A stretch of DNA of 64,000 nt from Escherichia phage 241: sequence record OR924452; one strand, given 5' to 3'. The position numbers and the translations under genes are program-made. Below the pieces are notes generated by a model. It was not told where the DNA came from. It did no database searches and saw nothing but the letters and a program-made list of their open reading frames with translations. Below are positions 18,102-58,010 of this stretch, in pieces. Position 1 is the stretch's first letter, and each line of letters begins with the position of its first letter.

Positions 18102-18108
18102 CTAAATA
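18102..18108 (+). promoter_or_regulatory. Late-promoter-like CTAAATA motif upstream of gp6
   Basis: CTAAATATCTTCAA about 45 nt before the start codon; same core as the motifs before gp14, gp18, gp22 and the tailspike genes. Confidence 0.45.
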
Positions 18109-18148
18109 TCTTCAACACCATATTCAAACTCAGGTGATGGAGATTATC

Positions 18149-19930
18149 ATGGCCACGCAAACAGTTCCTTCACTCGACGTCAGAGCCTTTGAGTACATTA
18201 TCAAACAGCGAATGAAAGCTGATCCCACCTTTAAAGATTATGACTTTGAAGGTTCCGGTCTTAGTGCTATTATTCGTTTGTTGGCATCTGATGCGAACGC
18301 CATAGCCTTTATGCAGAACATGCTTAATGGTGAAGGCCATTTAAAAACAGCAAATCAACGTTCTAATGTTGGTTTGTCTGCTGCTTTTCTTTCTTATACC
18401 CCCGACAACTATCGGGCGGCATACATGTATGCCAACATCAAAGTAACGCCGTATGACGCCAGTACAGCTCCTAATGAGATCATTATGGACCGCCGTGTGA
18501 TGTTCGTTGGGGCGAAGGATGGGAGTTCCTACAACTTTACTGTTGAAAAACCCGTGTCTGCCACGTTGACAACAGACGGTTATTACATGTTCAACAACGT
18601 GAAACTGATTCAGGGTAACTGGTTGTACAAGACATATGATGTTGAAGGAAGCGCGATTTCGACTTATACGATACCTTCGGAAAATGTTGATATCAATCAT
18701 CTGGTCGTACAGGTACAGGAATCAGAGTCCTCTGATGTTTCAACGACATACCAGAGATACAACAGTCCGTTCGACCTGAATCAATATGCATATCTCTATT
18801 TTGTGGAATTAGGGATAGATGGCCTGTATGTGTTTGAGTTCGGAGATGGTTATCTGTCTCGCCGAGTAGAAGATGGCAACGTTATTTTCCTCCAGTATTT
18901 AGAAACTTCTGGTGCTGAAGGTAATGACATCACTAGTTTATCTTCCGCATCTTCGATAGGCGGGTTTAACCAGGTTGATATAGAATTGGTTTCCGAACGC
19001 AGTGCGGGTGGGGGAGATCCGGAATCTATTGAAGATACGAAGCGTCTGGCACCTTTGGCTTATCAGGCTGATGGCGCTGCCGTTACGGAAACCGATTACG
19101 GTGTTTTAACTGAACGCTTGTTTTCTAACGTCGCCCGTGCTAAATCATATGGCGGCGATACGCTTTCCCCTCCGGATTCTGGTTACGTTTATATCGCTGT
19201 GATACCATCTGTTGGAGAGACTCTTTCAGACGCAGAGAAGGCTGATATCGTTGCCGCGTTGGACAAATACAACGTTGGGTCCATCACCCCCAAAGTGGTA
19301 GATTCTGAGATCACATATATCCAAGTCGCCACGACTATATTTTGGGATCCGACTTCAACGGTTTATGTTGAAGAACAAATGAAAGTGGTGGTGGGCAATA
19401 GTATCACCAAATGGGGTGAAAACAATCTCGGTGGTTTTGATCAGTTATTCGACAAAGAGATATTGCAGGAAGCAATTACGAAAATGGAACGTTCCATTAA
19501 CTCAAATATCACGTCTGTCGGTTATAAACGTCATTTCAAACCTGATTATGGTGTGTTGGATAGCTTTACTTTCAGTTATGGGAGAAGCATTAAACCTGGT
19601 TCTGTGAAAATAACAGGGTTTAAACCGCTTCCGGCCGAAGTTGATTTCACTTATTATATGCGCGATGACAATGGCGATTTGAACATGTATAAAGTGAACA
19701 ACAACGACACCACTAAAGAATTTTTGGTTCAAAAGACTGGTGTTGTGGATTACGCCAACGGCGTCGTAGATCTTCAGCAGATTACGGTTTCAAACTATAA
19801 TACTGAAGGAGTAACGATCGTTGTGCTACCAGATGGCCTGAATCAGAATATACAGGCTTCACAAAACCAGGTATTCAAAATCGGTGATGTGGTTGTTACG
19901 CCAGAGGTGCGCTATGTCCAAAGATCTTAA
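18149..19930 (+). CDS. gp6: Baseplate wedge protein (T4 gp6-like)
   Basis: Conserved DYDFEGS segment and overall N-terminal similarity to T4 gp6; start reset from the track's TTG at 18098 to the ATG at 18149 with a GGAG RBS. Confidence 0.75.
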   Translation: MATQTVPSLDVRAFEYIIKQRMKADPTFKDYDFEGSGLSAIIRLLASDANAIAFMQNMLNGEGHLKTANQRSNVGLSAAFLSYTPDNYRAAYMYANIKVTPYDASTAPNEIIMDRRVMFVGAKDGSSYNFTVEKPVSATLTTDGYYMFNNVKLIQGNWLYKTYDVEGSAISTYTIPSENVDINHLVVQVQESESSDVSTTYQRYNSPFDLNQYAYLYFVELGIDGLYVFEFGDGYLSRRVEDGNVIFLQYLETSGAEGNDITSLSSASSIGGFNQVDIELVSERSAGGGDPESIEDTKRLAPLAYQADGAAVTETDYGVLTERLFSNVARAKSYGGDTLSPPDSGYVYIAVIPSVGETLSDAEKADIVAALDKYNVGSITPKVVDSEITYIQVATTIFWDPTSTVYVEEQMKVVVGNSITKWGENNLGGFDQLFDKEILQEAITKMERSINSNITSVGYKRHFKPDYGVLDSFTFSYGRSIKPGSVKITGFKPLPAEVDFTYYMRDDNGDLNMYKVNNNDTTKEFLVQKTGVVDYANGVVDLQQITVSNYNTEGVTIVVLPDGLNQNIQASQNQVFKIGDVVVTPEVRYVQRS

Positions 19931-21963: not shown

Positions 21964-22003
21964 CTAAATACCCCTAGATGACATGAATACATTTAGGGGT
22001 ATT
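21964..22003 (+). promoter_or_regulatory. Late-promoter-like motif plus hairpin (CTAAATACCCCT ... AGGGGTATT) before the tailspike start codon
   Basis: CTAAATACCCCT at 21964-21975 pairs with AGGGGTATT at 21995-22003; ATG at 22008. Confidence 0.5.
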
Positions 22004-22007
22004 ACAA

Positions 22008-25000
22008 ATGGCCAACAAACCAACACAGCCTCTTTTCCCTTTGGGTTTAGAAACTTCGGAGTCTTCTAACATAAAAGGCTTCAACAACTCCGGCACCATA
22101 GAGCATTCCCCTGGTGCAATATTGACGTTCCCTGAAGATACTGATGTTGCGGGTCTTCCATCTTCTGTGCGTTACAATCCTGTTAGTGATGAATTCGAAG
22201 GTTATTACGAAAATGGCGGGTGGCTGTCTTTGGGCGGCGGTGGAATACGCTGGGAAACGCTCCCATACGCTCCCTCTAGCAATTTGTTAGAAGGGCGCGG
22301 CTATCTCATTAATAACTCCACTGGGACTTCTACGGTGGTTCTTCCTTCCCCTACGCGCGTTGGTGACTCGGTTACAATTTGTGATGCCTATGGTAAATTC
22401 GCGACGTACCCATTGACTGTATCTCCAGCGGGAAATAACCTGTACGGCTCCACCGAAGATATGACGATATCCACCGATAACGTGTCGGCGACTTTCACTT
22501 GGTCTGGTGCTGAGCAGGGTTGGGTTGTTACATCTGGTGTTGGCCTAGGTCAAGGTCGTGTGTACAGTCGAGAGATTTTCACTCAAATTTTAGCATCTGA
22601 TACAAATGAAGTGACTCTCAACATCCCTCCGACAATTGTGGACGTGTACACTGATGGGAAACGCCTTACAGAATCCAAATATTCTTTAAATGGAAACGTA
22701 ATCACTTTCGACCCTTCTTTACCTGCTGGCACTGAATTGCAGGTAATAGAATATACTCCGATTCAGTTAGGTACTGGCGGCGGGGGTTCGGGCGCTTCTG
22801 CAATCACCTGGATTTACAATGGCGGATCCGCTATCGGCGGCGAAACCGAAATAACGCTAGACATCGTTGTAGATGATGTTCCGGCTATTGATATAAACGG
22901 GTCTCGTCAGTACAAAAATCTTGGATTCACGTTCGACCCATTGACGAGTAAAATCACTCTGACGCAAGAACTGGAACCAGAAGATGAAGTTGTTGTGGTT
23001 ATAAATGGGACACCAAACATTTATAACCAGATCGATCGTTCTTTACAGGAAGTTGCTCGCGCCTACAATTTTACAAATGCTCAAGTTATTTTGAGCAACG
23101 ATTATACTTCTGCGCTGGATAATAAAGTCGTTATTTATGATACAACATCCCAACGTTCTTGGGGGATTCCATCTGGAATTCCAGCAGGTTCTACAGTGGT
23201 TTCCGTCAATGGGGATCAACTGAAATACAAAAATGGATCAACTGAAACCACTGTTACATTGGTGAGTGTACCAGGTAGTGCAGAGAAGTTGAAGAACGAT
23301 CTGGCGTCGAACTCTGGCGCGGGCATGTTGAAAACTTCTAGAGGTGATACCGTAGAAGAAGAATTGACTTTTATTAATCAGAATATGGTCGTTCAAATTT
23401 CAGATTTCGCGAGCCTTAGAACTTTAGTGCCAGCCACAGCGGGCATCCGAGTCAAATTGAAAGGTTATTATTCTGGTTCTGAAATTGGTGGCGGAGAATT
23501 CATTTCCGTCGCTGGTGATGCTGTTGATGATGCTGGGATGATTGCTCGAGTGTCAAGCAGCTTCTATTGGAAGAGAATTATCGACAAACATATTACTCCT
23601 GGTATGTATGGCATCAAAGGGAATCTTCCAGAAGATCCGGCAGTGAAACTGAACGCTATGTTTACGGCTGCGGCTGCGGCTAACGCTTATGTCTTACTGA
23701 ACGATGTCGATACTCTGGTCTGTAAAAGCCCTGTCGTGATCCCAGCACATTCATTAGTGTACGGCAACAAGCGGACCATATTGAAACGTGATGCATCGTT
23801 GTCATATGCTAATGATTTCTTGACAATTATGAATGATTCATATGTCAAGGGGATCTATGTTGATGGTAGCCGTTTAGATTCTCAGACTCCGCTAGAAGCA
23901 GTTTTGGTGCGCATCGCTGGGAATGTGACTATCCATAAGAGCGAGATCCGAAACAATGCTGGCTATGGCGTTGTTGGTAACGCAGTCCCTGGCATTCGTA
24001 TCACCAAGAACATTTTTTCCAACTTCGCCAAAGGTTGTGTGGCTATGTTTGGCGACGGAACGGCGACGAGTGATGATCTGCAAATTAATGATAACAGATT
24101 CTTTAACCTGGGCGCGGGAACCATTTATGTTGGCGGTTACTCAAACTTCCTTGTCGACAAAAACGTCGGAAGAGGCACTTACGTGGGTTCTCCAGGAAAC
24201 CGTCTGTATGTTGTGACCAATACCAACGGGACTATCACCCAAAGCGCTGGGCCAGATTTTGGGGCGCTGAAAACGGGTATGTTCTTTGTATTGCCTGGTG
24301 GTTCTGAACATATGATAACGGCAGTCAACAGCCTTACAAGTGTGACAGTAACCCCAGCGCCTCCGTCGAATGCAACGGTTCGTGCAATTGCTGGGACAGG
24401 GGATCTTCTGGGCATCCAATCATGCTCCTACGGCACCATCAGCCGTAACAACCTGACCGATTGTGTGACTTACGGAACTGGTGGAGGCACGATGGAGGGG
24501 AGCACTCTGGGGTGCAATTATGTCACTTGGGAAGACAACTTCATCCGCAACACAGGTAAGAACGGAATCAACGTCGGGCAATCAGGCGCTGGGGTCGCCA
24601 CGTGTTCAATCCTGAGGAACACTCTGATACAGGTTGGTAACGGCGGTCAGGGCGTCGGCCCAGCGTATCTTCTGCCTTGGTTCGATACGGTAGGTATTGC
24701 TCTGTATCAGGGAAATCCAGGTTATATGGCGAATATGGACGTCAGTGATAACAACGTCTCTACATGGTCTGGCGATCTGAATGACGGCGCTGCTTGGTTT
24801 GGTATGAGCGGTTGTACGGAAGCCACTGTGACTTGTACAGGCAACAAATCTTCTGGTTATTCCGACGGCTATGTTCGTGGAGATATATTAGAAGTCACGT
24901 TGACAGGTTATGGTACAGGGGCGGCTGCGACTTCATTCGTTAGTGATGGTGAGTCTATACAGATAACCGTTCAAACAGGTACTTCACCAACAGCTTCTCC

Positions 25001-25181
25001 TTATTTTTCAGTGCGGAAGGCGATCCGCACCCGCCATCAACCGATGATAACGGCGCAGATCGTCACCACAACTGGGAACATGTCTCATTGTTGGGGCATG
25101 CAATCTAGTACAGCAGGAAACTGGATGGTGGGACAGAATACAACTCCTTCAGGGGTCACGACGTATTACGCAAAAGGGTAA
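22008..25181 (+). CDS. Tailspike protein (long form, multi-domain N-terminus, beta-helix-like C-terminal region)
   Basis: 1057 aa; N-terminal region shares a module with the 747-aa tailspike (RSLQEVARAYNF... versus RSIQEIARSANV...); Gly/Asn-rich repetitive C-terminal region. Confidence 0.75.
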   Translation: MANKPTQPLFPLGLETSESSNIKGFNNSGTIEHSPGAILTFPEDTDVAGLPSSVRYNPVSDEFEGYYENGGWLSLGGGGIRWETLPYAPSSNLLEGRGYLINNSTGTSTVVLPSPTRVGDSVTICDAYGKFATYPLTVSPAGNNLYGSTEDMTISTDNVSATFTWSGAEQGWVVTSGVGLGQGRVYSREIFTQILASDTNEVTLNIPPTIVDVYTDGKRLTESKYSLNGNVITFDPSLPAGTELQVIEYTPIQLGTGGGGSGASAITWIYNGGSAIGGETEITLDIVVDDVPAIDINGSRQYKNLGFTFDPLTSKITLTQELEPEDEVVVVINGTPNIYNQIDRSLQEVARAYNFTNAQVILSNDYTSALDNKVVIYDTTSQRSWGIPSGIPAGSTVVSVNGDQLKYKNGSTETTVTLVSVPGSAEKLKNDLASNSGAGMLKTSRGDTVEEELTFINQNMVVQISDFASLRTLVPATAGIRVKLKGYYSGSEIGGGEFISVAGDAVDDAGMIARVSSSFYWKRIIDKHITPGMYGIKGNLPEDPAVKLNAMFTAAAAANAYVLLNDVDTLVCKSPVVIPAHSLVYGNKRTILKRDASLSYANDFLTIMNDSYVKGIYVDGSRLDSQTPLEAVLVRIAGNVTIHKSEIRNNAGYGVVGNAVPGIRITKNIFSNFAKGCVAMFGDGTATSDDLQINDNRFFNLGAGTIYVGGYSNFLVDKNVGRGTYVGSPGNRLYVVTNTNGTITQSAGPDFGALKTGMFFVLPGGSEHMITAVNSLTSVTVTPAPPSNATVRAIAGTGDLLGIQSCSYGTISRNNLTDCVTYGTGGGTMEGSTLGCNYVTWEDNFIRNTGKNGINVGQSGAGVATCSILRNTLIQVGNGGQGVGPAYLLPWFDTVGIALYQGNPGYMANMDVSDNNVSTWSGDLNDGAAWFGMSGCTEATVTCTGNKSSGYSDGYVRGDILEVTLTGYGTGAAATSFVSDGESIQITVQTGTSPTASPYFSVRKAIRTRHQPMITAQIVTTTGNMSHCWGMQSSTAGNWMVGQNTTPSGVTTYYAKG

Positions 25182-25190
25182 TATTGAATG

Positions 25191-25228
25191 CCTAAATACC
25201 CCATATTGGACATCCTTTATGGGGTATT
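25191..25228 (+). promoter_or_regulatory. Late-promoter-like motif plus hairpin (TAAATACCCCAT ... ATGGGGTATT)
   Basis: 10-bp perfect stem AATACCCCAT/ATGGGGTATT with a 14-nt loop, 3 nt before the ATG at 25232. Confidence 0.5.
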
Positions 25229-25231
25229 ATC

Positions 25232-27235
25232 ATGATTTCTCAATTCAATCAGCCACACGGCTCCACTTCAATATTTGTTAACAAACAATCTATCGCTCTG
25301 AATTTCGGTGTCACCAAAGACGAAGTTGTTTATTTCGCTGCTGGCATTGACCTTAGCGGATACAAAGTAATCTATGATGAATCGACTCAACGGGCTTATT
25401 CTCTTCCAGCTGGGATTGTTTCAGGAACTACTGCCATCAGTCTGGACGAAAAAGCCATTTTGACCCATTCGGCTGGCTCTGTTGATCTTGGAGAACTGGC
25501 TGTGCAACGCGGAGAGTTTGTTACTGTACCTGGTTCTTTTAATTTCGGCCATACCATTAATGTGAAAAATGAACTTCTTGTTCACGATGATGAAAAATAT
25601 CGATGGGATGGTTCTTTGCCAAAGGTAGTTGCCGCTGGTTCTACACCCGATAACTCAGGCGGTGTTGGCACAGGCGCGTGGGTTAGCGTTGGGGATGCGT
25701 CATTAAGGAATGAGTTAGCAAGTCCTTCAGGATCATCACTTTCAGGTCATTCAAATGGCCTTTCGGTAGCTGAAAACCTGAATAACCTCTTAGCAAAAGC
25801 ACAATTCATCACACCAGAGCAATTTTACAGCAATCATCCTGGTGAAACTGACTGGGCTGTGATGATTAACGAGGCATATTCCTATGCTCGCGATCATAAT
25901 AGTTCTGTGTTGCTTGCTAATGACTACCACACTGCGTCAACAATTGTTCACTTAGACGGTGTTACTGTTATTTGTACCGGGCGTATTATTGCATCGCCAA
26001 CAGGAACATATTCATACACCACCGCATTAGGTAATGAAGAGGAGGCTGCTTATGTAATTACTACTGAAAATGGTGTGTTTAACAATGCAAAATCTTCATC
26101 TCTTTACGGTCTAACATTGACATATACAGACAATAGAGAACCATCAGGATATACCGACCCTCACATACTAGCTAAAGGCGTTGTCATTACTGATACGGCT
26201 AATGTTTACATAAACAACCTGCAAACATTTGGGTTCTTAAATGGCGGTGTCGATGTTGGTGGAATTTCTGGTAATGGGTTTGAGATTGTAATAAATAAAT
26301 GTTTAGCCTGGATTTACGCATGGACGGATTCGGAGAAGATAGGATTCCGATGCAACGTTACAGACTCTACATTCTATGATGTCGTAACTGTAGCATATGG
26401 AATTGGAATTCATAATGTTAAAGGTGGTGGAAACGTCTATTTTAACGCGCACCCATGGGGGTATCCTTTAACCGCCGCTAATCTATACCCAAACAGACAG
26501 TGTAAAATTCAATTTCTGTTAACAGGGGGTGGCACAACTTTCTTCAGGCCGTATGCCGATACAATCACAAAATTAGACAGCAGTCAAAACGCTAGTCGGG
26601 CCAATGGTGGTGTTGGGTTTTACATCGACAACTGGAGAAATAAAATTATCGCAGCAGAGGTGGCGATACATAATGATGAGATTAGCACTGGAATGTCATT
26701 AGCTTACCTGGTAGGCGATGCCTCGCGTAATGAAATTGAATTCACAAACATAAACAACACATCGAAACTTGGGAATGAAAGAGTTTCATATGATTCAGGA
26801 TATCAAACCGCTTTATTTACAAACATTGTCAGAATTCCTGAGTATAACGCAGGTAATTTAAGCAACCTTACAGGAAGCATATCATTCAATGGTACAGGAG
26901 TTACTTCTTCTGGCACGTACAGTTTACGCAGAAGTGGTGAGTATATAGACATTCTTTTAACTATAGGAGTGACTTCAATATCAAGCCCATCCGGACCATT
27001 ATCAATCACGCTACCACGTGGTCTTGTGTGTAGATTTGGGCCATCAGCAGAGCCTGAGCAGACTTCGTGCTTTGGTAACATCAGTTCAATCAATATAGGT
27101 GTAATTGCAGTTCTAAACGGAAGCTCTATAGAGTTCTATTACAAGACAGCAAATGGGGCAAGGGTCCTTATTAATGCAGCTGGAGTATCAGTCGGGACTC
27201 TTGAGTTATTTTTAAGAGGTAAAATTTCGAATTAA
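25232..27235 (+). CDS. Tailspike protein (short N-terminal anchor type)
   Basis: 667 aa; first 160 aa are homologous to the N-terminus of the 826-aa tailspike; divergent C-terminal domain. Confidence 0.75.
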   Translation: MISQFNQPHGSTSIFVNKQSIALNFGVTKDEVVYFAAGIDLSGYKVIYDESTQRAYSLPAGIVSGTTAISLDEKAILTHSAGSVDLGELAVQRGEFVTVPGSFNFGHTINVKNELLVHDDEKYRWDGSLPKVVAAGSTPDNSGGVGTGAWVSVGDASLRNELASPSGSSLSGHSNGLSVAENLNNLLAKAQFITPEQFYSNHPGETDWAVMINEAYSYARDHNSSVLLANDYHTASTIVHLDGVTVICTGRIIASPTGTYSYTTALGNEEEAAYVITTENGVFNNAKSSSLYGLTLTYTDNREPSGYTDPHILAKGVVITDTANVYINNLQTFGFLNGGVDVGGISGNGFEIVINKCLAWIYAWTDSEKIGFRCNVTDSTFYDVVTVAYGIGIHNVKGGGNVYFNAHPWGYPLTAANLYPNRQCKIQFLLTGGGTTFFRPYADTITKLDSSQNASRANGGVGFYIDNWRNKIIAAEVAIHNDEISTGMSLAYLVGDASRNEIEFTNINNTSKLGNERVSYDSGYQTALFTNIVRIPEYNAGNLSNLTGSISFNGTGVTSSGTYSLRRSGEYIDILLTIGVTSISSPSGPLSITLPRGLVCRFGPSAEPEQTSCFGNISSINIGVIAVLNGSSIEFYYKTANGARVLINAAGVSVGTLELFLRGKISN

Positions 27236-27237
27236 AA

Positions 27238-27270
27238 TAACCCCGCTTCGGCGGGGTTTTGTTATTTTCT
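27238..27270 (+). terminator. Rho-independent terminator
   Basis: CCCCGCTTCGGCGGGG hairpin plus TTTTGTTATTTT. Confidence 0.8.
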
Positions 27271-27403
27271 CTTATCGTGGCATATAATTTGTTTATTCAA
27301 AGATTCTTCTAATTCAGGATGAAACCCATTTCATAAATTTTGTTGTGTAGACTATGTTAAGAGGAAGAGTATAAACATAGATAAACTCAACATATTGATA
27401 CTC

Positions 27404-27441
27404 ACTAAATACCCCATATTGGCAAATCCTTTATGGGGTAT
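27404..27441 (+). promoter_or_regulatory. Late-promoter-like motif plus hairpin (CTAAATACCCCAT ... ATGGGGTATT)
   Basis: Same element as at 25191; the track's start at 27433 lies inside the 3' arm of the hairpin. Confidence 0.5.
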
Positions 27442-27447
27442 TTTCAA

Positions 27448-29676
27448 ATGACCAGAAATGTAGAAGAATTATTCGGCGGCGTAGTCACAGCTCCCCACCA
27501 GATTCCTTTCACTTATAAATCAAGTGTCGGTGGAGAAACTTTCATTTCTCTACCTTTCTATCCTGTCACTGGTGTTGTCACAATTAACGGCGGCATGCAA
27601 GTTCCGTTAGACAACTTCGAGATAGACGGGAATACGTTAAACCTCGGGCGCGCATTGTCTAAAGATGACGTGGTTTATTGCCTGTTCGACAAAATCCTTT
27701 CACCAGAAGATACTTCTAAAGGCATTCGAATATACAAATTTCAAGCCGTGGGTGGGGAAACTGAATTCACGCCTGACTTTACTTCTTATGGTGTACAGTC
27801 TCTTTATATCGGTGGCGAGTACAAAACCCCAGATATAGAATATTCATACAACAGTACGACTGGGAAAGTTTCCCTACAAACTGCTCTGACTGCAGGGGTG
27901 TGGGTTGTTGCGGAGATGTCTGTTAAACAACCGAATATCAGTCCGGCGTTCGATCGCAGTATCCAAGAAATTGCCCGTTCGGCTAACGTAAAAGACTCTG
28001 AAGTCATTGTCAGCACTGATACCATATCTTTACTCGACGACAAGAAAGTTGTTTATGATTCAGCAGCGCAGGTTATTTATGGTTTACCAACTATTCCTGA
28101 TGGTTCAGTGATTTCTTCTGTATCTGATGGAAAATTGACTTATAATCCAGGTGATGTGCAGGTTGATCTGTTACCATTACCAGATTCTGCCCAGGCAGTT
28201 AAATTATTCTATTTGCAACCAAGTGGCGCAGAAAATATTAAAGTTTCCAGTGGCGACACAGTACAAGATATTCTGAATAATATCAATAAACACCGTGTTG
28301 TAAGCAGCATTTCAGAACTTTTGAATATATCTCCAACAGAAACGTCAGTTGTATTCGTGGCATCTTTCCATCCATCAACCAATTACGGGGGTGGATTCTT
28401 CCGTTGGGATCCGTCTGGAAACAAGGCAACCCACAATGGTGGTACGATTATTGATCCTGATAAAACGTTTCCGACTTGGGACAGCGCAGGTAAAACTTCT
28501 TGGTTTACCGCAAGCGGGACGGGTACTGGTGTTTGGCGTCGGCAAGACGTGATGGGTCATTACCGTGCTGAAGATTTCGGTGCACTCCCTTGGAACGTCG
28601 GGGACGCGCATGACAGTACCAAAGAATTCCAACAAGTGGCTAATGTGGCTTATCGGGGCGGTTGCTGGAGATGGACAGGTCGCCATCGCATTACGAGTTA
28701 TATCGATATCCCCAATAAACAGACTTTTGGTTCATACGCCCAAATGACTTCTGTTTATTCTGAATTATTCCAGCCTAGCAATTTCCAGGGGGTGCACGTT
28801 ATTTCTGATCCTTCTTTAGCGCGTTCTGTGCAAAATGCAGTCTTCTTTGATGCTGCGACCGGAGAAGCATTCCGTTGTGGGGAAGGTGCATCCCCGACCG
28901 ATTTTTTGGTGTACGGAAGAGGGTTTACAACTACTGGGATGGATTTGGCAACATCATTACCTTCGGCGGCGTCGTATTGTGACACCCAAGCATTCCGTCA
29001 TGGGAAGGCTATTAACGTGCGAAATGTTACTGTTGCGCTTATGAAGTACGCATTGGATTCTAATCCATGGGATGCCAGCAAAGGTGATTATTATTCCACA
29101 ACGGATCATATGACGATTTTGTATTGTTATTGCATTAGTCGTGTACCAACTGGCCAGGATATAACATTTAACACCAAGCATATCAATATGCGTGCATATG
29201 TAAACCAGATTGGCGATTATGGATTGGCAGTCCGAAATGTGGTGTTTATCGGTGGATCCATAGAAGGATATAACACTTCAACATTCTTACGATCCAGTAC
29301 TCAACTTTCTTTCAAAGGCACATATTTTGAAACGGGTGACACGTCATTCAATGGTACAGTATTCAGCCTTGTTGGTTGGTGTACTCTTAACTTTGAAGAA
29401 TGTCTTGTTTATTTGAACAACACCACAAACTTCGTGTCTTCTGGTGGTTCTGGGCAATCTGCTGGCGTCTTGGGTCTAACGATTAAATCTCAAGGTAACG
29501 TGTGGCGTAAAACTGACGCGGGGACAACCACAGTGTTTGCAGTTGACCCAGTCACTAATAAACAAGCCTTAGTTGGATCCGAAATATTGAATGCTGCGAG
29601 TGGGGCAACTATCGCATATTGGGCTGGTGCCGTCCCACCTGGCACATACACGGCTCCAATCAGTGTTGCATTTTAA
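27448..29676 (+). CDS. Tailspike protein (long form)
   Basis: Start moved to the ATG at 27448 (MTRNVEEL) by analogy with the 25232 gene; N-terminal modules shared with the 1057-aa tailspike. Confidence 0.7.
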   Translation: MTRNVEELFGGVVTAPHQIPFTYKSSVGGETFISLPFYPVTGVVTINGGMQVPLDNFEIDGNTLNLGRALSKDDVVYCLFDKILSPEDTSKGIRIYKFQAVGGETEFTPDFTSYGVQSLYIGGEYKTPDIEYSYNSTTGKVSLQTALTAGVWVVAEMSVKQPNISPAFDRSIQEIARSANVKDSEVIVSTDTISLLDDKKVVYDSAAQVIYGLPTIPDGSVISSVSDGKLTYNPGDVQVDLLPLPDSAQAVKLFYLQPSGAENIKVSSGDTVQDILNNINKHRVVSSISELLNISPTETSVVFVASFHPSTNYGGGFFRWDPSGNKATHNGGTIIDPDKTFPTWDSAGKTSWFTASGTGTGVWRRQDVMGHYRAEDFGALPWNVGDAHDSTKEFQQVANVAYRGGCWRWTGRHRITSYIDIPNKQTFGSYAQMTSVYSELFQPSNFQGVHVISDPSLARSVQNAVFFDAATGEAFRCGEGASPTDFLVYGRGFTTTGMDLATSLPSAASYCDTQAFRHGKAINVRNVTVALMKYALDSNPWDASKGDYYSTTDHMTILYCYCISRVPTGQDITFNTKHINMRAYVNQIGDYGLAVRNVVFIGGSIEGYNTSTFLRSSTQLSFKGTYFETGDTSFNGTVFSLVGWCTLNFEECLVYLNNTTNFVSSGGSGQSAGVLGLTIKSQGNVWRKTDAGTTTVFAVDPVTNKQALVGSEILNAASGATIAYWAGAVPPGTYTAPISVAF

Positions 29677-29679
29677 TTT

Positions 29680-32236: not shown

Positions 32237-32296
32237 TATCTGTCTGTTGGCTGTATACTAAATATCTCTATAAATGGCACTCGATGGAGCATCAAA

Positions 32297-35200
32297 ATGC
32301 AATCTACAAATCTAAACCGTCGCCCGTATTGGGACGACTGGAATCCTGGAAAACGGTTTTCACGGATTCTTTTTCGCCCGATGCCTATTAAAGTTCAGAC
32401 TCGTGAACTAAACCAGATGCAGACTATTCTGCAAGATCAGATTGAAAAGCTGGGAAACCATTTGTTCAAAGATGGATCTATGGTTATCCCTGGTGGTCTG
32501 ACGATTACCAACGCCGCTGTATCTATGAAATTCACTCTGGCTGGCGGTACTGAGTTTACTGATCTGGAAGGGATTACTGAACTTTATGTTCTGGGAAAAG
32601 ACAATAATGCCAAAGCGCGTGTGCTATCTCTTGAACGTGATCTGTCTGCTCCGGATACGATGTTGGCCATCCTTGAAATGACAGAAGTGGGTAATGCAGA
32701 TGGCTTCCACGTCAACGACAATCTGTATTTCCAAACCTATGACGTCAATGACAACTTCATTCGTATTGGTTATGGTATCGCAGCTGCGGTGACTGGTTCT
32801 ATCGTCGCTCGTATGACGAAGGGCGTTTACTTCATTCGTGGGATGTTCCTTGATGTTGATGACGCGACTCTCATCGTCGATAAAACTTCAAACACTTCTT
32901 CCCATCGCGTCGGGTTTAAAGTCACTGAAACCATCGTGACTGAATCTGAAGACGAATCCCTTTATTCAAACGCTCAGGGAACGATTAACTCCAAAGCCCC
33001 AGGCGCTCATCGTCTTCGAATAGATCTGGTCTTATCTCGATTTGATTATGATGCTGTGGTTGAAGACTTTGTTGAACTGGCCAAAGTTCGTGATGGTAAA
33101 ATCCAGTCTATGGTGACTCAGTCCACCTATAATATTCTGGAAGACACGTTGGCTCAACGGACGTATGAAACCAACGGCGATTACAACGTTTCAACGCATC
33201 AGATCGACATCCGCGAACACCTGAAAGTCAATAACAATGGTGGTGTATTCAATGCTGCTGATGGCGGCGACGAAAGTAAATTCGTGTCTGTAATGAAACC
33301 AGGTATTTCCTATGTTCGCGGTCGTCGTATCGAAAACGTCGGGGAAGAGTTGGTGATCGTTGACAAGGCACGGGATACCGATGTCCTGAATAACACGCCT
33401 GTCGCAGTTGCTACAGGGAATTATCTGGTCACCAAGAACTCCAAAGGTGTTCCAGTAATATCTCGCACTGTGCGATACAAGTTATTGAACGCATCTGGCG
33501 CTGCTCAAGCCACGGCGTTGTGTATATCCGCTGAACGCAATTCAACTGAATTCCGTCTGTACATGCGTGATTTGGTTGTGACTGGGGACGCGTCCACTAT
33601 CACCAAAGTGTCTTATGAAGAAAGTGGTATCACCATGTTCTCTGCTGAACTGGAATCCAACCAGTTTAACCAGAGTTCTATGGTAGACTTGATCTTCTCT
33701 CTTCCGGTCTTCGGTGTTAAAACATTAGCGCCAACAGGTTCCGTGGATATCAACTACACAGTCCTCAGAACTTATAAGGTGACGCTAGACAGCAGCGGTT
33801 CTGGTTCTATTTCAGCTCCGCTGGGATATAGTTTCTCTCCTGAATTTTCGTTGTATTCTTCTGCGAAATCCGATGGTTCAGAAGCGCAATTTGATATCTC
33901 TGGCTCTTTGTCACTGACTGGTTCTCCGGTGGGTTCGGCTTTGCAGATTTCCCTGGGTAGCGGTAATGCTAACCAGTCAATCAATTTGCTGGCACTGATG
34001 ATCCGCACTACGGCCACGATCAAAACGAAGACGATAACTGAAACCACAGAGTCTGTGACTTTTACTTCCCAAACCAGTAGACCTCTGGCAAATCACGACG
34101 GCTGGAAATTGGTATCTGTCAAAAATGATACTGGCGCGGACGTGACTTCGAGCTTCACCCTCGACGGTGGCCAACGCGATGCGGGATATTACAAGGCTAA
34201 TCTGTTATCCACCGCTGGAGCCATTTCAGGGACGTATACGGTGGTGTATCAATACTTCGCGCATAGTTCGGGGGATTTCTTCTCAGCGGATTCGTATACT
34301 TCAATGGATTACAAAGATATCCCGAATTATACATCCTCCACATCAGGGGCGGTGTATGGTTTGGCCGATAGCCTTGATTTCCGTCCGAAAATTACCAACG
34401 GGACATCCGACACTGATATGGTTCGCCCGAATACGGCTGTCATCCTGGACACAGAGTATTATTTGCCTCGTATCGACGCGATTTATCTGGCAGATAATGG
34501 CGTGTTTGGTGTAGCCCGTGGCATCAGTTCCAACAACCTGGCGTCCCCAGCAATACCTGCAAACTCCATGCGTTTGTATGAACTGTTGATTCCCCCATAC
34601 ACGCCGAATATCGATGATATACAAATTCGCACCATCGATAACCGTCGTTATACGATGCGTGATATCGGTAAACTGGAAACGCGTATTTCCAACGTTGAAT
34701 ACTACACCTCTCTGTCGCAGCTGGAATCTTCGGCGATGACACAACAGGTATTTGATCCAATCACGGGTAATCCGCGATTCAAAAACGGTATCGCCGCCGA
34801 TCCATTCAAAGACTTCCGTCTTATTGATGATCTGTCTGAAGATTGGATGGGATCTATCGATACGGAAAATGGACGTTTGCGTCCGTTTGTTCAACAGAAC
34901 GCCGTTGACATGACTCCAGTAGGCTGGAACAAAGTGATGGATGGTATGGTGGTTTGTAACTACACGCCTGAAATCTCCGTGAACCAAGAATACGCGACGA
35001 CGACGATCAACGTTAACCCGTATGCTGTATTCAACTGGGAAGGTTTCTTGAAGATTAACCCGACCACGGATTACTGGTTTGAAAACTACTATGTCGCCCC
35101 GCGTGTTATCAATGAAACGATCAACACTCGTGGTACTGTACAAGAAGGTTCGGTGTACGGGACGTGGCGTACTGTTTCTGTTTCTGATCGTGTTTGGGAG

Positions 35201-38772: not shown

Positions 38773-38780
38773 CTAAATAC
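38773..38780 (+). promoter_or_regulatory. Late-promoter-like CTAAATAC motif upstream of gp14
   Basis: CTAAATACCTTCAAAATTGAG; near-identical downstream sequence to the motif before gp18. Confidence 0.45.
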
Positions 38781-38802
38781 CTTCAAAATTGAGGGTAAAG
38801 TC

Positions 38803-39444
38803 ATGGCTACTTCGAAATATTTCAATTATACAGCACACCAAGGTACTCAGAAATTAATTGACGACTTGGTGGTCGAGATGATACAACTACGTGGGATTGA
38901 CGTCAAGTATATTCCACGTTCCATCGTTGAAAAATACCCAATTTTAAACGAGGCTGAACATAAATTCGACCAGGCGTTCGATATCGAAGTATACATGCAA
39001 GATTACCAAGGCTTTAACACCCAAATGTGGGAGAAGTTTGGCGGTATTCAATTACAAGATGAAGTGACGTTCACCATTGCTCGTCGCCGTTTTTCAGAAG
39101 TGATTGGTAATGGGCCAGGACTTGAGCAGATGCCTCAAGAAGGTGATTTGATATACCTCCCAATGGCGAACAAGATATTCAAAGTGAATAACCCGAATAA
39201 CGACGAAGAATTTATGCAATTCGGTAAATGGTACACATATTCCTTACCGTGCACGTTGTTCCAATATGGTAATGAAGATTTTGATACTGGTGTATCTGAA
39301 ATTGACGACATCGATAAACGTTTACAAGATCTAGACGGCGATGGTGTCTACAAAGATGCCAGTCTACAGACAGATAACCAATTTGCGGACGAAATAGAGA
39401 AAGATCTTTCGCCCAATAAAATGAAGATAGACTTCGGGGAATAA
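38803..39444 (+). CDS. gp14: Neck protein (T4 gp14-like, by synteny)
   Basis: 213-aa ORF between the gp13-like and gp15-like genes. Confidence 0.6.
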   Translation: MATSKYFNYTAHQGTQKLIDDLVVEMIQLRGIDVKYIPRSIVEKYPILNEAEHKFDQAFDIEVYMQDYQGFNTQMWEKFGGIQLQDEVTFTIARRRFSEVIGNGPGLEQMPQEGDLIYLPMANKIFKVNNPNNDEEFMQFGKWYTYSLPCTLFQYGNEDFDTGVSEIDDIDKRLQDLDGDGVYKDASLQTDNQFADEIEKDLSPNKMKIDFGE

Positions 39445-43022: not shown

Positions 43023-43030
43023 CTAAATAT
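43023..43030 (+). promoter_or_regulatory. Late-promoter-like CTAAATAT motif upstream of gp18
   Basis: CTAAATATCTTTCAAATTGAG, paralleling the gp14 upstream element. Confidence 0.45.
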
Positions 43031-43071
43031 CTTTCAAATTGAGCGAAACTCTACCGAGAAGGAATAACATT

Positions 43072-44967
43072 ATGGCAACTCAAAGCTTCAGCGTTGCGCC
43101 GTCCGTACAGTGGACTGAGCGTGATGCCACGCTTCAGACTTCTCCGTCCGTGGTTGTTCAGGGCGCGACAGTCGGCAAATTTCAATGGGGTGAAGTCGAA
43201 CTCCCAGTGCTGGTGACTGGTGGTGAGACGGGTTTGGTGAAGAAATTCTTCAAACCTAATGACAGCACTGCGACAGATTTCCTTGTGATTGCAGACTTTT
43301 TGTCTTACAGCTCTATGGCATGGGTGACTCGTGTTGTTGGTCCTCTGGCCAAGAACTCTGTCACCAAAGGCCAGACAGCCATCACGATCAAAAACAAGCT
43401 GGATTTTGAAACAGCAAGTCCGTCAGCGTCTATCACTTGGGCTGGTCGTTATCCAGGATCTCTGGGAAATGACATCGCCATCAATGTTTGTGACTCCGCT
43501 GGATTTCCGACCTGGGAATTCCGTAACAACTTTGCGTACGCACCTCAATCTGGTGAATTCCATGTTGTGGTTGTAGACAAAGTTGGGCGCATTACTGACT
43601 CTGCAGGCGCAGTCGGTCAGGTTGATCGTATATCTGTTTCTGGCACGGCAACTGCAGCTGGCACCATCAGTGTGGCAGGTGAAGATATTGCATATCTGGA
43701 TACTGATACTCCGGCCACTTTGGCGACCAAAATCGGCGCGGCGCTGACGGCGCTGACAGATGTTTATTCTTCTGTCGTTGTTAAGTCTAACACTGTCATC
43801 GTGACCCATAAAGCTATTGGTCCCCAGACAGTTACTGCTATTGTTCCAGATGATAAGGGGCTGACTGCAACCGCCGTGATTACCACTGTTGGCGCATCTG
43901 GTTCTATTATCGAAAAATACGAACTCATGCAGAACACACAGGGTTCCAAAAAGTCCGATGGCGCGAATGCGTACTTCAAAGATGTCATCAATGATACATC
44001 AAATTGGGTGTACACCTTCGCTACCGCTCTGGCCGCAGGTGTTGTTGAATTAGAAGGCGGCGTAGACGACTACAATATCAACCGTGTCGCGGCTATCCAA
44101 GTTCTGAACAACGCCGAAGCATATGATGCGAAGCCAGTATTTGCATACTGTGAAGAGTTGATTGAACAACAGGCATTAATCGACTTGTCTACCGAGCGAA
44201 AAGACACCGTTTCCTTCGTGTCGCCTTTGCGTGATACTGTGGTCGGCAACCGTGGCCGTGAGATGGACGATGTGGTCGCTTGGCGTGAAAGTCTGGTGCG
44301 CGACTCCTCCTATTTCTTCATGGACGACAACTGGGCATACGTGTACGATAAATACAACGATAAGATGCGCTGGATCCCTGCTTGCGGCGGTACAGCGGGT
44401 GTTTGGGCACGTAGTATTGAAATCGCGGGTATCTACAAATCTCCTGCGTTCCACAACCGTGGCAAATACAACAACTACAATCGAATGGCGTGGTCTGCGT
44501 CTTCCGATGAACGTGCCGTGTTGTACCGCAACCAGATTAACAGCATCGTGACCTTCTCCAATGAAGGTATCGTGTTGTATGGTGACAAAACTGGTCTGAC
44601 TCGTCCGTCTGCTTTCGATCGTATCAATGTTCGCGGTCTGTTTATTATGGCAGAACAGAACATCGCTGCAATCGCCAAATATTACCTTGGTGAGAACAAT
44701 GATGCGTTCACTCGCAGTCTGTTCAGCAACGCTGTTCGTCCTTATATTCGCCAGCTGGCAAATATGGGTGCGATCTACGATGGTAAAGTCAAGTGTGACG
44801 AAGATAACAACACTGCTGACGTCATCGCGGCAAATCAGATGGTCGCTGGTATCTGGCTGAAACCGGAATACAGCATCAATTGGGTGTATCTTGACTTTGC
44901 TGCAGTTCGTCCGGATATGGAGTTCTCTGAAATTGAATCCGGCGGCGGCATCGTTGCTGCTTCTTAA
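43072..44967 (+). CDS. gp18: Tail sheath protein (T4 gp18-like)
   Basis: GKFQWGEVELPV matches the T4 gp18 N-terminus; AAGGAA RBS; start at the ATG at 43072. Confidence 0.85.
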   Translation: MATQSFSVAPSVQWTERDATLQTSPSVVVQGATVGKFQWGEVELPVLVTGGETGLVKKFFKPNDSTATDFLVIADFLSYSSMAWVTRVVGPLAKNSVTKGQTAITIKNKLDFETASPSASITWAGRYPGSLGNDIAINVCDSAGFPTWEFRNNFAYAPQSGEFHVVVVDKVGRITDSAGAVGQVDRISVSGTATAAGTISVAGEDIAYLDTDTPATLATKIGAALTALTDVYSSVVVKSNTVIVTHKAIGPQTVTAIVPDDKGLTATAVITTVGASGSIIEKYELMQNTQGSKKSDGANAYFKDVINDTSNWVYTFATALAAGVVELEGGVDDYNINRVAAIQVLNNAEAYDAKPVFAYCEELIEQQALIDLSTERKDTVSFVSPLRDTVVGNRGREMDDVVAWRESLVRDSSYFFMDDNWAYVYDKYNDKMRWIPACGGTAGVWARSIEIAGIYKSPAFHNRGKYNNYNRMAWSASSDERAVLYRNQINSIVTFSNEGIVLYGDKTGLTRPSAFDRINVRGLFIMAEQNIAAIAKYYLGENNDAFTRSLFSNAVRPYIRQLANMGAIYDGKVKCDEDNNTADVIAANQMVAGIWLKPEYSINWVYLDFAAVRPDMEFSEIESGGGIVAAS

Positions 44968-47796: not shown

Positions 47797-47837
47797 AGTT
47801 CAACTAAATATAGAAAATTAATTCGGAGATCAAAATC

Positions 47838-48008
47838 ATGAGCGCAATTGATATCGTTCGTGCAGTAATTGACGGTGACACTGAAACTGCTGTTGCAGAA
47901 TGCAACATGGAACTTGATGCACGTAGTCAAGAACTATTGAACCAAGGCACAGCATATGTTCTGGATTCTATCGCAGCCGATATGAATTCAAACAACAACG
48001 GCCAGTAA
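47838..48008 (+). CDS. gp67: Prohead core protein (T4 gp67-like, by synteny)
   Basis: 56-aa ORF (below the track's length cutoff) between the portal and gp68-like genes. Confidence 0.5.
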   Translation: MSAIDIVRAVIDGDTETAVAECNMELDARSQELLNQGTAYVLDSIAADMNSNNNGQ

Positions 48009-49010: not shown

Positions 49011-49056
49011 ATTTCAGCTCACTAAATACTGAAAAATCGTTCAGAAGGAAACTATC

Positions 49057-49896
49057 ATGAAACCTGAATTGCAAAATCTGTTTGAAGGCGTTAACGGCAT
49101 CAGCCCAGATTTCCTGGATAAAGTATCCAATTTGCTGGAATCGAAAGTTGAAGCGGCTCGTCTGAAAGCTATCCAAGAAACCGAAGCAGCTGGCAACGTC
49201 GAGCGCCTGAATCTGGTAGAATCTCACCAGAAAGAAATCGCCGACCTGAAAGAAAATTTCATTCTGCAATTGGCTGGGAAAGTTGACTCATTCCTCAACG
49301 CGGTGGTTGAAGAATGGGCTAACAAAAATGCCCCAGCTATTGACGCTCAGATCAAAACTGAAGCTGCTGAACGCTTCCTCACTGGTTTCTCCAACGTGCT
49401 GAAAGAAGCAGGTGTGAGTTTCGCTACTGACCCAGACGGTCAGATTGCCGCCCTCACCAGTCGCCTTGCTGAAGCAGAACAACGCGCCAACATGGCTAAT
49501 ACAGAGTTGAGCCAACTCAAAGAAAGCGAGACTAAACGCCAGCGCACCGACGTAATTGATCGCATTTGTGAAGGTATGGTTGACACCAAGAAAGACACTG
49601 TTGTCAACCTGCTGGAAGGTATTGAATTCCAGACCGAGTCTGAATTCGAATCGCGTGTTCGCACCTTCCGTAATCTGGTAGAAGGTAAAGATGACTTCTC
49701 TGACAAAGTCGGTAAAGACAATGAAAAGGGTAAGCCAGATGGCGACAAGGCTGAAAAAGACATCAAAGAAGGTAAGAAACAGAAAAAAGAAGGTGATGTT
49801 GTTGACGACGATAAAGACGACGACGACAGAGACGAAGTTGGCAAAGAAGTCAACGAAGCCGTCCGTCGCCAGATCAGCGCCATTCTGAACGGCTAA
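49057..49896 (+). CDS. gp22: Prohead scaffold protein (T4 gp22-like)
   Basis: Highly charged, coiled-coil-like 279-aa protein between the protease and major capsid genes; CTAAATACT motif upstream. Confidence 0.7.
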   Translation: MKPELQNLFEGVNGISPDFLDKVSNLLESKVEAARLKAIQETEAAGNVERLNLVESHQKEIADLKENFILQLAGKVDSFLNAVVEEWANKNAPAIDAQIKTEAAERFLTGFSNVLKEAGVSFATDPDGQIAALTSRLAEAEQRANMANTELSQLKESETKRQRTDVIDRICEGMVDTKKDTVVNLLEGIEFQTESEFESRVRTFRNLVEGKDDFSDKVGKDNEKGKPDGDKAEKDIKEGKKQKKEGDVVDDDKDDDDRDEVGKEVNEAVRRQISAILNG

Positions 49897-54802: not shown

Positions 54803-54829
54803 ATAAATACCCCCAAAATTGGGGGTATT
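54803..54829 (+). promoter_or_regulatory. Late-promoter-like TATAAATACCCCC plus hairpin (AATACCCCC ... GGGGGTATT)
   Basis: Contains the T4 late-promoter core TATAAATA; 9-bp stem with a 6-nt loop, 2 nt before the ATG at 54832. Confidence 0.5.
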
Positions 54830-54831
54830 TT

Positions 54832-55560
54832 ATGAACGCACAAATCTACGATGTCCTTTCCTCTGGTAACGCATTTAGCAACCCGCTTCCGTCCCTCTCC
54901 GGTCCCTCACAGGATTTAATCACCAGTGGTAGTACCAATATACCATTGATAACTGCCAACGCGACTCCGGAAATGCAGTTGGCTATGTCAGCAGGTGGAT
55001 TAACACCAGATAAACTTACAGCAGCCACAAACATGTATAGCTCTGCCAACACGGGGATAACGACACTGAACACATATGGCGACCAGAGCATAAATGAAGC
55101 GTATTCAAGAATTGGGACTTCCGTTTCATATAAATCAGGTTTGAAAAGTATATCACGGGAACCAAACAATTGTGACCTGATCAACAAAGCATTCGGTGTT
55201 GTTCAGGATCTAGGCCGCCAATGGTTAAACGCTATGGAAGGCGCTCTCCAGACTGTGACTAACAAGATATCGGAATTGTATGACATGATTATGGAAGGTG
55301 CCTCAGAAGGTATGGCAAAACTACAGCAATTGGCTGCTGAAGTAACAGGACATATCAATGAGGCAATAACCGCCGTCAATGGAGTTATAAACGATATCAC
55401 CGATGGGATAGCTGCAGAACTTGCTCATATTGAAAGTATGATCAAAGAATGTCTAAACTTCTCTTTTGCGAATGTTCTTGGAGAATGGGCCAAAGATCTC
55501 TGTGCTGGAGGCGTTATTGATAAAATAGGGACTCCAGAATTAAAAGAGTCCCTGAAATAA
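54832..55560 (+). CDS. Hypothetical protein
   Basis: 242-aa ORF directly after the promoter-hairpin element. Confidence 0.55.
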   Translation: MNAQIYDVLSSGNAFSNPLPSLSGPSQDLITSGSTNIPLITANATPEMQLAMSAGGLTPDKLTAATNMYSSANTGITTLNTYGDQSINEAYSRIGTSVSYKSGLKSISREPNNCDLINKAFGVVQDLGRQWLNAMEGALQTVTNKISELYDMIMEGASEGMAKLQQLAAEVTGHINEAITAVNGVINDITDGIAAELAHIESMIKECLNFSFANVLGEWAKDLCAGGVIDKIGTPELKESLK

Positions 55561-57236: not shown

Positions 57237-57982
57237 TGGTTTCTCTACAGGCTTTGCGCAAACTTAATGACTTTGAAAATCGTCATCATACATTTCAGCA
57301 ATATTCCTTGCCGTTTAAGGAACTGACTTGCGTAACTACCGAAAATGGTCGTCACTATGTTTCTCCCACTGGAGTCAAACTAACTTCAGTGACGACCATG
57401 TTAGGGCGTACTGGTGACCACACATGGTTAGAAGCCTGGCGGGACAAGTTGGGGCATGAAGCTGCTGATATAGAAACACATCGTTGCGCAGACCGTGGGG
57501 AAAAACTTCATTTGGCTTGTGAGTTGTATCTCAAAAACAGACCAATGAAGGAAGTTCTGGAAGCTGCAGGGGAATACGTGTTTATGTTCAAACAGGTTTT
57601 CCCCTACCTTAACAAAATGAGCAAGATATATGCACAAGAGATTCCATTATATAGCGAAGTCCTGGGTCTTGCTGGTCGTGTTGACCTTATCGGGGTTTAC
57701 GAAGGAATTCCAAGCATAATCGATTTCAAAACATCCAACACCCTGAAAACTCGGAGCATGATAGAAGATTACAGCATTCAACTATGCCTGTACTCAGTCA
57801 TGTTTCAACAGATGTTTAATGTTAAGATCGAACGTTTGGTCAATATTATATCTAATGAAAATTCTCTTGTCCCGACTATAATCGAATTTAATCGAAAAGA
57901 CGTTATTTCTAAAATGTTTGATCGTGTTCGCCTGTATCATAAAATGGATAAAGAACAGAACGGGATCTGGGCGGATCGCTAA
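57236..57982 (+). CDS. PD-(D/E)XK family nuclease (RecB / lambda-exonuclease-like)
   Basis: Motifs GRVDLIGV and IIDFKTS fit the D...(D/E)xK catalytic core; start overlaps the previous stop (TAATG). Confidence 0.55.
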   Translation: MVSLQALRKLNDFENRHHTFQQYSLPFKELTCVTTENGRHYVSPTGVKLTSVTTMLGRTGDHTWLEAWRDKLGHEAADIETHRCADRGEKLHLACELYLKNRPMKEVLEAAGEYVFMFKQVFPYLNKMSKIYAQEIPLYSEVLGLAGRVDLIGVYEGIPSIIDFKTSNTLKTRSMIEDYSIQLCLYSVMFQQMFNVKIERLVNIISNENSLVPTIIEFNRKDVISKMFDRVRLYHKMDKEQNGIWADR

Positions 57983-57985: not shown

Positions 57986-58010
57986 CTCCATAATATTGGG
58001 GGAATTAGTG

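Follow-up and report, generated by a model that had tools for sequence, protein, structure and literature searches.

A predicted T4-type late promoter joined to a probable Shine-Dalgarno-masking hairpin ahead of tailspike and other genes of Escherichia phage 241

The subject here is a short intergenic element, termed a cassette, which recurs ahead of tailspike and other genes within a 64,000-nucleotide stretch of Escherichia phage 241 (sequence record OR924452), the whole of which is described as 'the window'. This cassette probably combines a late promoter of the gp55 type with a hairpin by which the ribosome-binding site (RBS) is masked, which is the design seen with phage T4 genes e, soc, 49, and I-TevI. 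The 5' arm of the hairpin would consist of the promoter box itself, (C/A/T)TAAATA, along with the next 4 to 7 bases, and the 3' arm would carry the Shine-Dalgarno (SD) sequence (GGGG, GGAGG, GGG...), 2 to 9 nt 5' of the start codon. RNA arriving from a promoter located upstream thus would possess both arms, would fold, and thereby would hide the SD; it might also partly terminate where a U-rich tail follows. RNA from the embedded late promoter would instead begin about 6 nt after the box, would be without a 5' arm, and would display a free SD. Translation of the downstream gene, that is, would be tied to the firing of its own late promoter, such that probably only those messages started at the embedded promoter can be translated. 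The motif, the hairpins, and the specificity, covariation, and conservation of their pairing are what the sequences show, while the start-site position (from T4 geometry), the existence of read-through RNA, and a block to its translation are inferred.

Occurrence and composition of the cassette

An earlier note on this DNA had placed the element before the starts at 22008, 25232, 27448, and 54832, and at 9973 on the minus strand, and indeed the cassette, CTAAATACCCC…GGGGTAT(T)-N2-5-ATG, is found before all five. By annotation of Salmonella phage Maynard, the first three are starts of tailspike or tail-fibre genes (TSP1 to TSP3), while 54832 begins a 242-aa homologue of Maynard_68 and 9973(-) begins a 149-aa homologue of Maynard_27. 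A weaker cassette precedes a homologue of UvsW, i.e., the gene 3' of 57979 (E 2e-78 versus T4 UvsW, PDB 2OCA). These are as follows, with free energies and z scores those of the predicted RNA hairpins:

21964..22010 (+), TSP1 cassette: box CTAAATA 21964-21970, 5' arm 21967-21980, loop 21981-21989, 3' arm 21990-22003 (GGGG being the SD), ATG 22008; -19.1 kcal/mol, z -5.7
25192..25234 (+), TSP2 cassette: box 25192-25198, 5' arm 25195-25205, 3' arm 25218-25228, ATG 25232; -19.5 kcal/mol, z -4.0
27405..27450 (+), TSP3 cassette: box 27405-27411, 5' arm 27407-27418, 3' arm 27432-27443, ATG 27448; -18.8 kcal/mol, z -4.8
54803..54834 (+), cassette of the 242-aa Maynard_68 homologue: box ATAAATA 54803-54809, 5' arm ~54805-54815, 3' arm ~54820-54830, ATG 54832; -18 kcal/mol, z -4.3
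9971..10006 (-), cassette of the 149-aa Maynard_27 homologue: box 10006-10000, 5' arm 10002-9992, 3' arm 9986-9976, ATG 9973; -18.1 kcal/mol, z -5.0
57975..58013 (+), weaker cassette of the UvsW homologue, in a different register: box 57979-57985, inner helix CTCCA 57986-57990 : TGGGG 57997-58001, outer helix 57975-57982 : 58005-58012, ATG 58011; -15 kcal/mol, z -4.4

For the five named cassettes RNA folds thus range from -18 to -19.5 kcal/mol (z -4.0 to -5.7), a stability equalled in none of 200 shuffles. In each of these five the sequence GGGGTAT(T), which is complementary to the 5' arm, lies 2 to 5 nt 5' of the start codon. Exact copies of CTAAATACCCC are seen at 21964(+), 25192(+), 27405(+), and 10006(-), with one-mismatch copies at 54803(+) (ATAAATACCCC), 57979(+) (CTAAATACTCC), and 9527(-) (CTAAATATCCC), i.e., 7 matches in the window versus 0.72 expected, with 7 reached in 0 of 100 shuffles. 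All copies of the 8-mer GGGGTATT/AATACCCC within the 64 kb, furthermore, fall in cassette arms. The last of the one-mismatch copies supplies an internal contrast, as at 9486..9527 (-) the box CTAAATATCCC is followed not by a hairpin (-5.2 kcal/mol, z -0.3) but by a canonical SD, GAGGAA, and then by a 152-aa gene. The TSP3 3' arm contains an in-frame ATG, at 27433, which is not the annotated start.

That the 5' arm contains a promoter box of the T4 late type, as the earlier note had proposed, is upheld. The box is located 28 to 56 nt before, and on the correct strand for, the starts of tailspike, baseplate, sheath, scaffold, neck, and endolysin genes. It is unchanged, as (C/A/T)TAAATA, in 20 cassette copies while sequence 5' of it is not conserved, that is, a -10-like box with no -35 element. 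GenBank annotation of Maynard (96% identical) includes a gp55-like 'late sigma transcription factor', the gene for which is outside of the window, as well as sliding-clamp and clamp-loader homologues which are present in the window region. A related Kuttervirus, too, is reported by annotation to encode a 'late promoter transcription accessory protein'. On sequence grounds the window itself is placed in genus Kuttervirus, family Ackermannviridae, with 96% identity to Salmonella phages Maynard and PS5, and the 8-kb stretch around the cassettes is 93-98% identical to PS5, Maynard, Marshall, Vi01, and other Vi01-like Salmonella and Escherichia phages.

The same note had suggested that this late promoter is lineage specific. 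The late-promoter portion of that suggestion stands, but the motif is not new. The 11-mer CTAAATAcCcc is said to originate with the Viunalikevirus genus proposal of Adriaenssens et al. (2012, Arch Virol 157:2035). CTAAATAcCcc and TTCAAT[N14]TATAAT are given as 'two unique regulatory motifs' of Ackermannviridae (PMC7283392), and the text consulted lists the 11-mer without a complementary 3' arm, without overlap with the SD, and without a reason for the 'cCcc' extension. The late promoter of phage CBA120 was not identified in the CBA120 paper (2011), the LIMEstone1 paper reports 33 late promoters without stating their motif, and the words promoter, transcription, hairpin, and terminator are all missing from the text of a 2024 review of Ackermannviridae. 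The promoter half of the cassette is already known as a motif. No description of the hairpin or of a complementary arm was found in the literature searched, and the hairpin half seems to be previously undescribed. The second published motif, TTCAAT-N14-TATAAT, presumed to be an early promoter, has 5 matches in the window versus 0.6 expected: 3670-3695(-) and 17823-17848(-), plus one-mismatch copies at 7625(+), 11986(-), and 14470(-). The copy at 11986(-) would drive an operon that runs into the cassette at 10006(-); near 53.2 kb no such early-type promoter was found which could feed the Maynard_68 cassette.

Predicted masking of the Shine-Dalgarno sequence and selection on the stem

The 3' arm, consistent with what had been noted previously, sits where an RBS would be, and it holds the only SD candidate. 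To place this in context, 26 candidate late promoters were compiled from the window and from Maynard. Given RNA that includes the box, the SD of 12 of these has a probability of being unpaired of less than 0.2 (0.00-0.15), with the mean over those 12 rising from 0.07 to 0.58 if the RNA starts instead at the sixth base after the box. For the remaining 14 that same change of RNA start takes the mean from 0.57 to 0.65. In long transcripts, that is, the SD would be found within a stable helix (folds of -15 to -19.5 kcal/mol), as is the case with gating of the T4 type. Pairing is, furthermore, cognate: Across the 26 promoters the 11 nt from AATA onward pair with their own SD at a mean of -7.6 kcal/mol, versus -4.10 ± 0.42 for permuted pairs (p ≤ 1e-5), a result which is the same without the TSP3 duplicate.

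The two arms also change together, as CCCC:GGGG, CCTC:GAGG, CCCA:TGGG, ACCC:GGGT, TCCTT:GAGGA, and CCTTCAA:TTGAGGG. An alignment (A2) of 20 paralogous and orthologous cassette copies with a 13-bp helix has 86.5% of its helix cells paired, versus 75.0% in shuffles (0 of 500). Both-side changes occur at 7 of the 13 pairs (2 of 500), with 33 such cells versus 13.6 expected (0 of 500), and the covariation score is 0.342 versus 0.126 (0 of 500); slid partners are 36-53% paired. The rows of A2, being related sequences, are less independent of one another than these shuffle counts imply.

For other genera, folding and DNA alignment were carried out at selected sites, and a search for related loci that began from a single protein gave only near-identical Kuttervirus contigs. 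The Maynard locus carries the label L019. Stems at the Maynard_68 site are invariant in 15 phages of six lineages even as the loop varies in both length and sequence, apart from a Serratia phage that has a U·G pair in this stem. The TSP1 hairpin has orthologues in Klebsiella, Dickeya, and Yersinia phages, and Dickeya and Yersinia phages also keep the Maynard_27 stem, with a differing loop. The gp14 and endolysin hairpins are kept as well, the former in 5 of 6 lineages (it is lost in Dickeya) and the latter in Agtrevirus, Taipeivirus, and a second Kuttervirus species. Changes among the Maynard_27, gp14, and endolysin hairpins preserve G·U pairs, and such pairs are accommodated only if the sequence is read as sense-strand RNA. 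With uvsW, other genera have a short YCCCA:TGGGR helix. Constant stems with variable loops thus are seen in Kuttervirus, Limestonevirus, Agtrevirus, and Miltonvirus, and in unclassified Klebsiella, Yersinia, and Escherichia phages of Ackermannviridae, i.e., stem conservation spans six phage lineages and at least four genera. The stem is under selection.

Outside of the window the Maynard endolysin cassette reads TTAAATACCTCTGCA-ATCAC-TGCGGAGGTATTTTCTTATG (-18 kcal/mol, z -6.1) and that of a Maynard RuvC-like resolvase reads CTAAATACCCATAAC…GTTATGGGTATTTTTATG (-15.7 kcal/mol), with cassette variants found as well at the Maynard gp5 homologue and at a small gene, Maynard_12. A scan of the window with Rfam 15, at gathering score, matched no family to the hairpins and otherwise returned three tRNAs only. 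These tRNA genes, 13072-13144(-), 13502-13582(-), and 14595-14667(-), lie between two structural-gene blocks.

CTAAATA without further qualification occurs 15 times in the window versus 7.1 expected. The earlier note had listed a bare CTAAATA before gp6 (18102), gp14 (38773), gp18 (43023), gp67 (the small head gene at 47804), gp22 (49022), and uvsW (57979). The boxes indeed are there but 'bare' does not hold for gp14 or uvsW, since both have weaker hairpins that are of the same design. Promoters other than those listed above are:

18102..18151 (+), gp6 promoter: CTAAATA, with ATCTTC near the promoter able to pair long-range with the SD, GGAGAT
32258..32299 (+), promoter of a 1612-aa VrlC-like gene: CTAAATA, no hairpin, following the canonical terminator 32206-32231
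38773..38805 (+), gp14 promoter: shorter hairpin of the same design, CCTTCAA : TTGAGGG, SD GAGGG, -10.9 kcal/mol
43023..43074 (+), promoter of the tail sheath gene (gp18): CTAAATA, no strong hairpin
47804..47840 (+), promoter of a 56-aa head-region gene: CTAAATA, no hairpin
49022..49059 (+), promoter of the scaffold gene (gp22): CTAAATA, no SD-masking hairpin

Start-site geometry, T4 precedent, and competing explanations

In T4, the SD and/or AUG of e, soc, 49, and I-TevI are sequestered in long transcripts, which are poorly translated (PMC3014915, Uzan and Miller 2010), and late promoters found just 5' of the RBS give rise to transcripts that are without the 5' part of the helix and which are well translated (PMC3014915). 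The cassette resembles these in its possession of an SD within a helix and a late promoter directly upstream of the RBS, though here as seen from sequence and folding only. Even the genes correspond in part, as the Maynard endolysin and RuvC-like junction resolvase, both of which carry the cassette, are functional counterparts of e (lysozyme) and 49 (endonuclease VII). The hairpin half would work like this well-known T4 device, and the element itself is real. It differs from the T4 examples in that the 5' arm is the box itself plus CCCC, a stereotyped, repeated 11-mer that is kept across genera, and in extent, with approximately 12 of 26 predicted late promoters involved, including those of three tailspike genes, versus four cases named in the T4 review (PMC3014915). 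The promoter in turn is like the T4 late promoter TATAAATA (gp55/gp33/gp45; PMC2988020, PMC7892883) in having an 8-bp, -10-like box without a -35 element that is found upstream of late genes, and in the annotated presence of clamp genes and, in Maynard, of a gp55-like sigma. Unlike in T4, position -12 is mostly C rather than the A that is inserted into a gp55 pocket, and the post-box segment is C-rich rather than AT-rich (PMC2988020).

The position of the start site would be the key step of this model. T4 late promoters possess an 8-bp TATA box about one helical turn 5' of the start (PMC2988020), and cryo-EM of the open complex shows bases -12, -9, and -8 of the non-template strand of TATAAATA flipped by gp55, from which it follows that the T4 box spans -13 to -6 and that +1 is the sixth base after the box (PMC7892883). 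With that geometry applied to the cassette, CCCC is -5 to -2. Of the 26 promoters, 18 have a purine as the sixth base after the box, and every one has a purine at base 5, 6, or 7. By T4 geometry late RNA thus should start about 6 nt after the box, in which case the late transcript would be without AAATACCCC, i.e., the 5' arm, and the hairpin would form only in RNA that enters from upstream. The role of the cassette then is likely one of telling read-through RNA from late-initiated RNA rather than of self-regulation of late mRNA.

Self-regulation is what the earlier note had proposed, that is, a late transcript holding both arms whose 5' untranslated region folds back on itself so as to tune its own translation. 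The overlap between hairpin and SD is real, and no mapped transcription starts for Ackermannviridae were found in the literature. The 5' arm, however, is the -10-like box plus the next 4 to 7 bases, extending to about -1, which by T4 geometry would not be transcribed from that promoter, and purines suited to initiation follow the box in every one of the 26 promoters. The proposal is not supported in this form, and seems quite improbable. Still harder to credit would be a complementarity lacking function, with CCCC only an extended promoter or discriminator and GGGG only an unusual SD. YCYY does follow the box even in promoters without a hairpin, the T4 gene 23 late promoter (P23) reads TATAAATACTCC (PMC7892883), and at the Maynard_26 promoter of Dickeya and Yersinia phages CCCC follows the box without a matching GGGG, such that CCCC may in part belong to the promoter itself. 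Against this are the excess of cognate over non-cognate pairing, the both-side changes at 7 of 13 stem positions, and stems which reach well past CCCC:GGGG into gene-specific bases. With TATAAATACTCC placed beside the uvsW cassette, CTAAATACTCC at 57979-57989, a pyrimidine-rich post-box segment may be older than Ackermannviridae.

Alternatively, the hairpin could act chiefly on the gene upstream, as its intrinsic terminator or to stabilise its 3' end, with late transcripts escaping since they start inside of it and with masking of the SD secondary. A TATTT(T) tail, supplied by the complement of the box, does come after a GC stem, GenBank marks the Maynard_68 and endolysin hairpins of Maynard as terminators overlapping the RBS (and the Mooltan copy at the Maynard_68 site likewise), and those tailspike junctions that have a canonical terminator are without the hairpin. 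This nevertheless is unlikely to be the primary role. No window cassette has at least 5 T in 8 bases, and none shows a GC stem directly followed by a U run as expected of rho-independent terminators (tails TATTACAA, TATTATCA, TATTTTCA, TATTTTAT), with several tails simply not U-rich (TATTACAA, TATTATCA, TATCTATG, AATTAGTG). It is because of this failure in a simple terminator scan that termination is set aside as the main function. The 3' arm, in addition, tracks the SD position, 2 to 9 nt before the ATG, and covaries with SD variants, which a terminator would not need to do, and the true terminators constitute a repeated family of their own, with AACCCCGC-loop-GCGGGGTT and then a T run. It is plausible that, as a second effect, the cassettes partly attenuate read-through. 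Members of the terminator family are:

27239-27258, upstream of the TSP3 cassette, within a swapped-in module (see below); reads as a terminator on both strands
32206-32231, upstream of the VrlC-like gene promoter
~44972-44995
~51330-51351

A strict either/or, with a junction possessing either hairpin cassette or canonical terminator, was considered as well and is contradicted by the terminator at 27239-27258. Another way of joining a terminator and a late promoter is seen in Maynard at L019:25946-25990, upstream of an rI.-1-like gene, where a CTAAATA box occupies the loop of an annotated terminator (ATCCCCC-TAAATAC-AGGGGGAT, then a T run).

Genomic context speaks to what upstream RNA the cassette would act upon. 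Cassettes follow non-structural genes at Maynard_27 (after the 397-aa enzyme gene annotated as dependent on pyridoxal phosphate), at uvsW (after an exonuclease), and at the endolysin gene (after small genes downstream of primase), and there is no cassette at Maynard_26, which comes after the late gene Maynard_27. A full box-anchored cassette is found at none of four divergent intergenic promoters (gp6, gp2, M131, M170), though gp6, with only its 6-bp long-range pairing, nonetheless has an SD-unpaired probability of 0.14 and so is among the 12 masked; divergent context, that is, does not cleanly separate the classes. At the tailspike junctions of other lineages, a canonical GC-rich terminator is followed by a bare CTAAATA and a GGAG SD, and where there is no terminator there is a cassette. 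An association of hairpin type with upstream genes other than late ones is no more than suggestive.

A number of observations weigh against a late promoter combined with an RBS-masking hairpin, or at least against its simplest form. That same link is not significant (Fisher p = 0.13, with gene classes hand-assigned from annotation). Tailspikes 1 and 2 are downstream of other late structural genes, and pure early/late gating therefore does not explain them; the most that can be offered is that the cassette there insulates expression from the transcript of the preceding gene. A canonical terminator precedes the TSP3 cassette by 150 nt. The -13 to -6 geometry comes from T4, and Ackermannviridae has C rather than A at -12. 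To these may be added, from above, the partnerless CCCC of Maynard_26 and the lack of mapped starts in the literature.

Tailspike exchange and implications

Homology between phage 241 and Maynard is lost inside TSP2, at 25707, and resumes at precisely 27404, where the TSP3 cassette has its first base. A second swap extends from 30152, inside TSP4, to 32201, ending at a terminator. Receptor-binding modules thus have been swapped, with one right-hand junction at a conserved intergenic element. This raises the possibility that the cassette is chiefly a conserved recombination module for tailspike exchange, with regulation incidental, i.e., a late-gene analogue of PeSLs, motifs in which promoter and stem-loop are combined and which in T4-like phages are associated with the shuffling of modules (PMC4122927). 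The cassettes of TSP2 and TSP3 indeed are nearly identical, loop included, and are alike across genera, and PeSLs also are short, repeated, intergenic combinations of promoter and stem-loop (PMC2839356, PMC4122927). PeSLs, however, consist of sigma-70 early promoters plus terminator stem-loops in hyperplastic regions, whereas the cassettes have a late promoter inside the stem and the RBS in its other arm, and no consistent sigma-70 match was found at the cassettes. The same design, moreover, precedes single-copy, non-exchangeable genes (endolysin, resolvase, uvsW, gp14, gp5), with arms that differ but are compensated. The left breakpoints, 25707 and 30152, are inside genes rather than at cassettes, and coincidence with a cassette edge is seen for 1 of 4 window-Maynard breakpoints (27404) in one genome pair. 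A chiefly recombinational role consequently is very unlikely. Somewhat less doubtful, though offered tentatively, is that the cassette is a portable late-expression module (promoter, read-through insulator, and RBS) which isolates the expression of each tailspike while also supplying a conserved right-hand homology arm for receptor-binding exchange among Ackermannviridae phages, with 'cCcc' existing as an anti-SD arm rather than for the late sigma.

Within this same region, the 146-nt spacer between the post-TSP2 terminator and the TSP3 cassette (27259-27404) has no Maynard homologue, and it contains at 27259-27288 a sigma-70-like match, TTGTTA-18-TATAAT. TSP4 (start 29724; 29650-29729) comes after a terminator, has a GGAG SD, and in this phage has no CTAAATA box; in a Klebsiella phage the corresponding position (L013:29745-29833) does hold CTAAATA. 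Elsewhere, a 46-nt direct repeat (53226-53270 / 7601-7646) is 76% identical, with the 53226 copy holding an inverted repeat, AAACGGGGTTTA…TAAACCCCGT. OR844942.1 ('Enterococcus phage Efm 3-10'), probably a mislabelled or contaminated Kuttervirus assembly, encodes a protein that matches the 242-aa protein of the window at 100% identity.

The control of transcription and translation in Ackermannviridae is essentially unstudied, even as these phages see wide use in biocontrol and in the engineering of tailspikes. If the cassette is indeed a late promoter joined to an RBS-masking hairpin, then it would account for half of the Ackermannviridae signature motif, and would predict a strict dependence on the firing of a late promoter for certain genes, i.e., endolysin, resolvase, UvsW, and the tailspikes. 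Swapping or inserting a tailspike without an intact cassette could, in that case, either silence the gene or free it from timing control. Gating of the T4 lysozyme type, lastly, would be an old device that is widely used in a distant T4 relative, rather than a curiosity of a few T4 genes.

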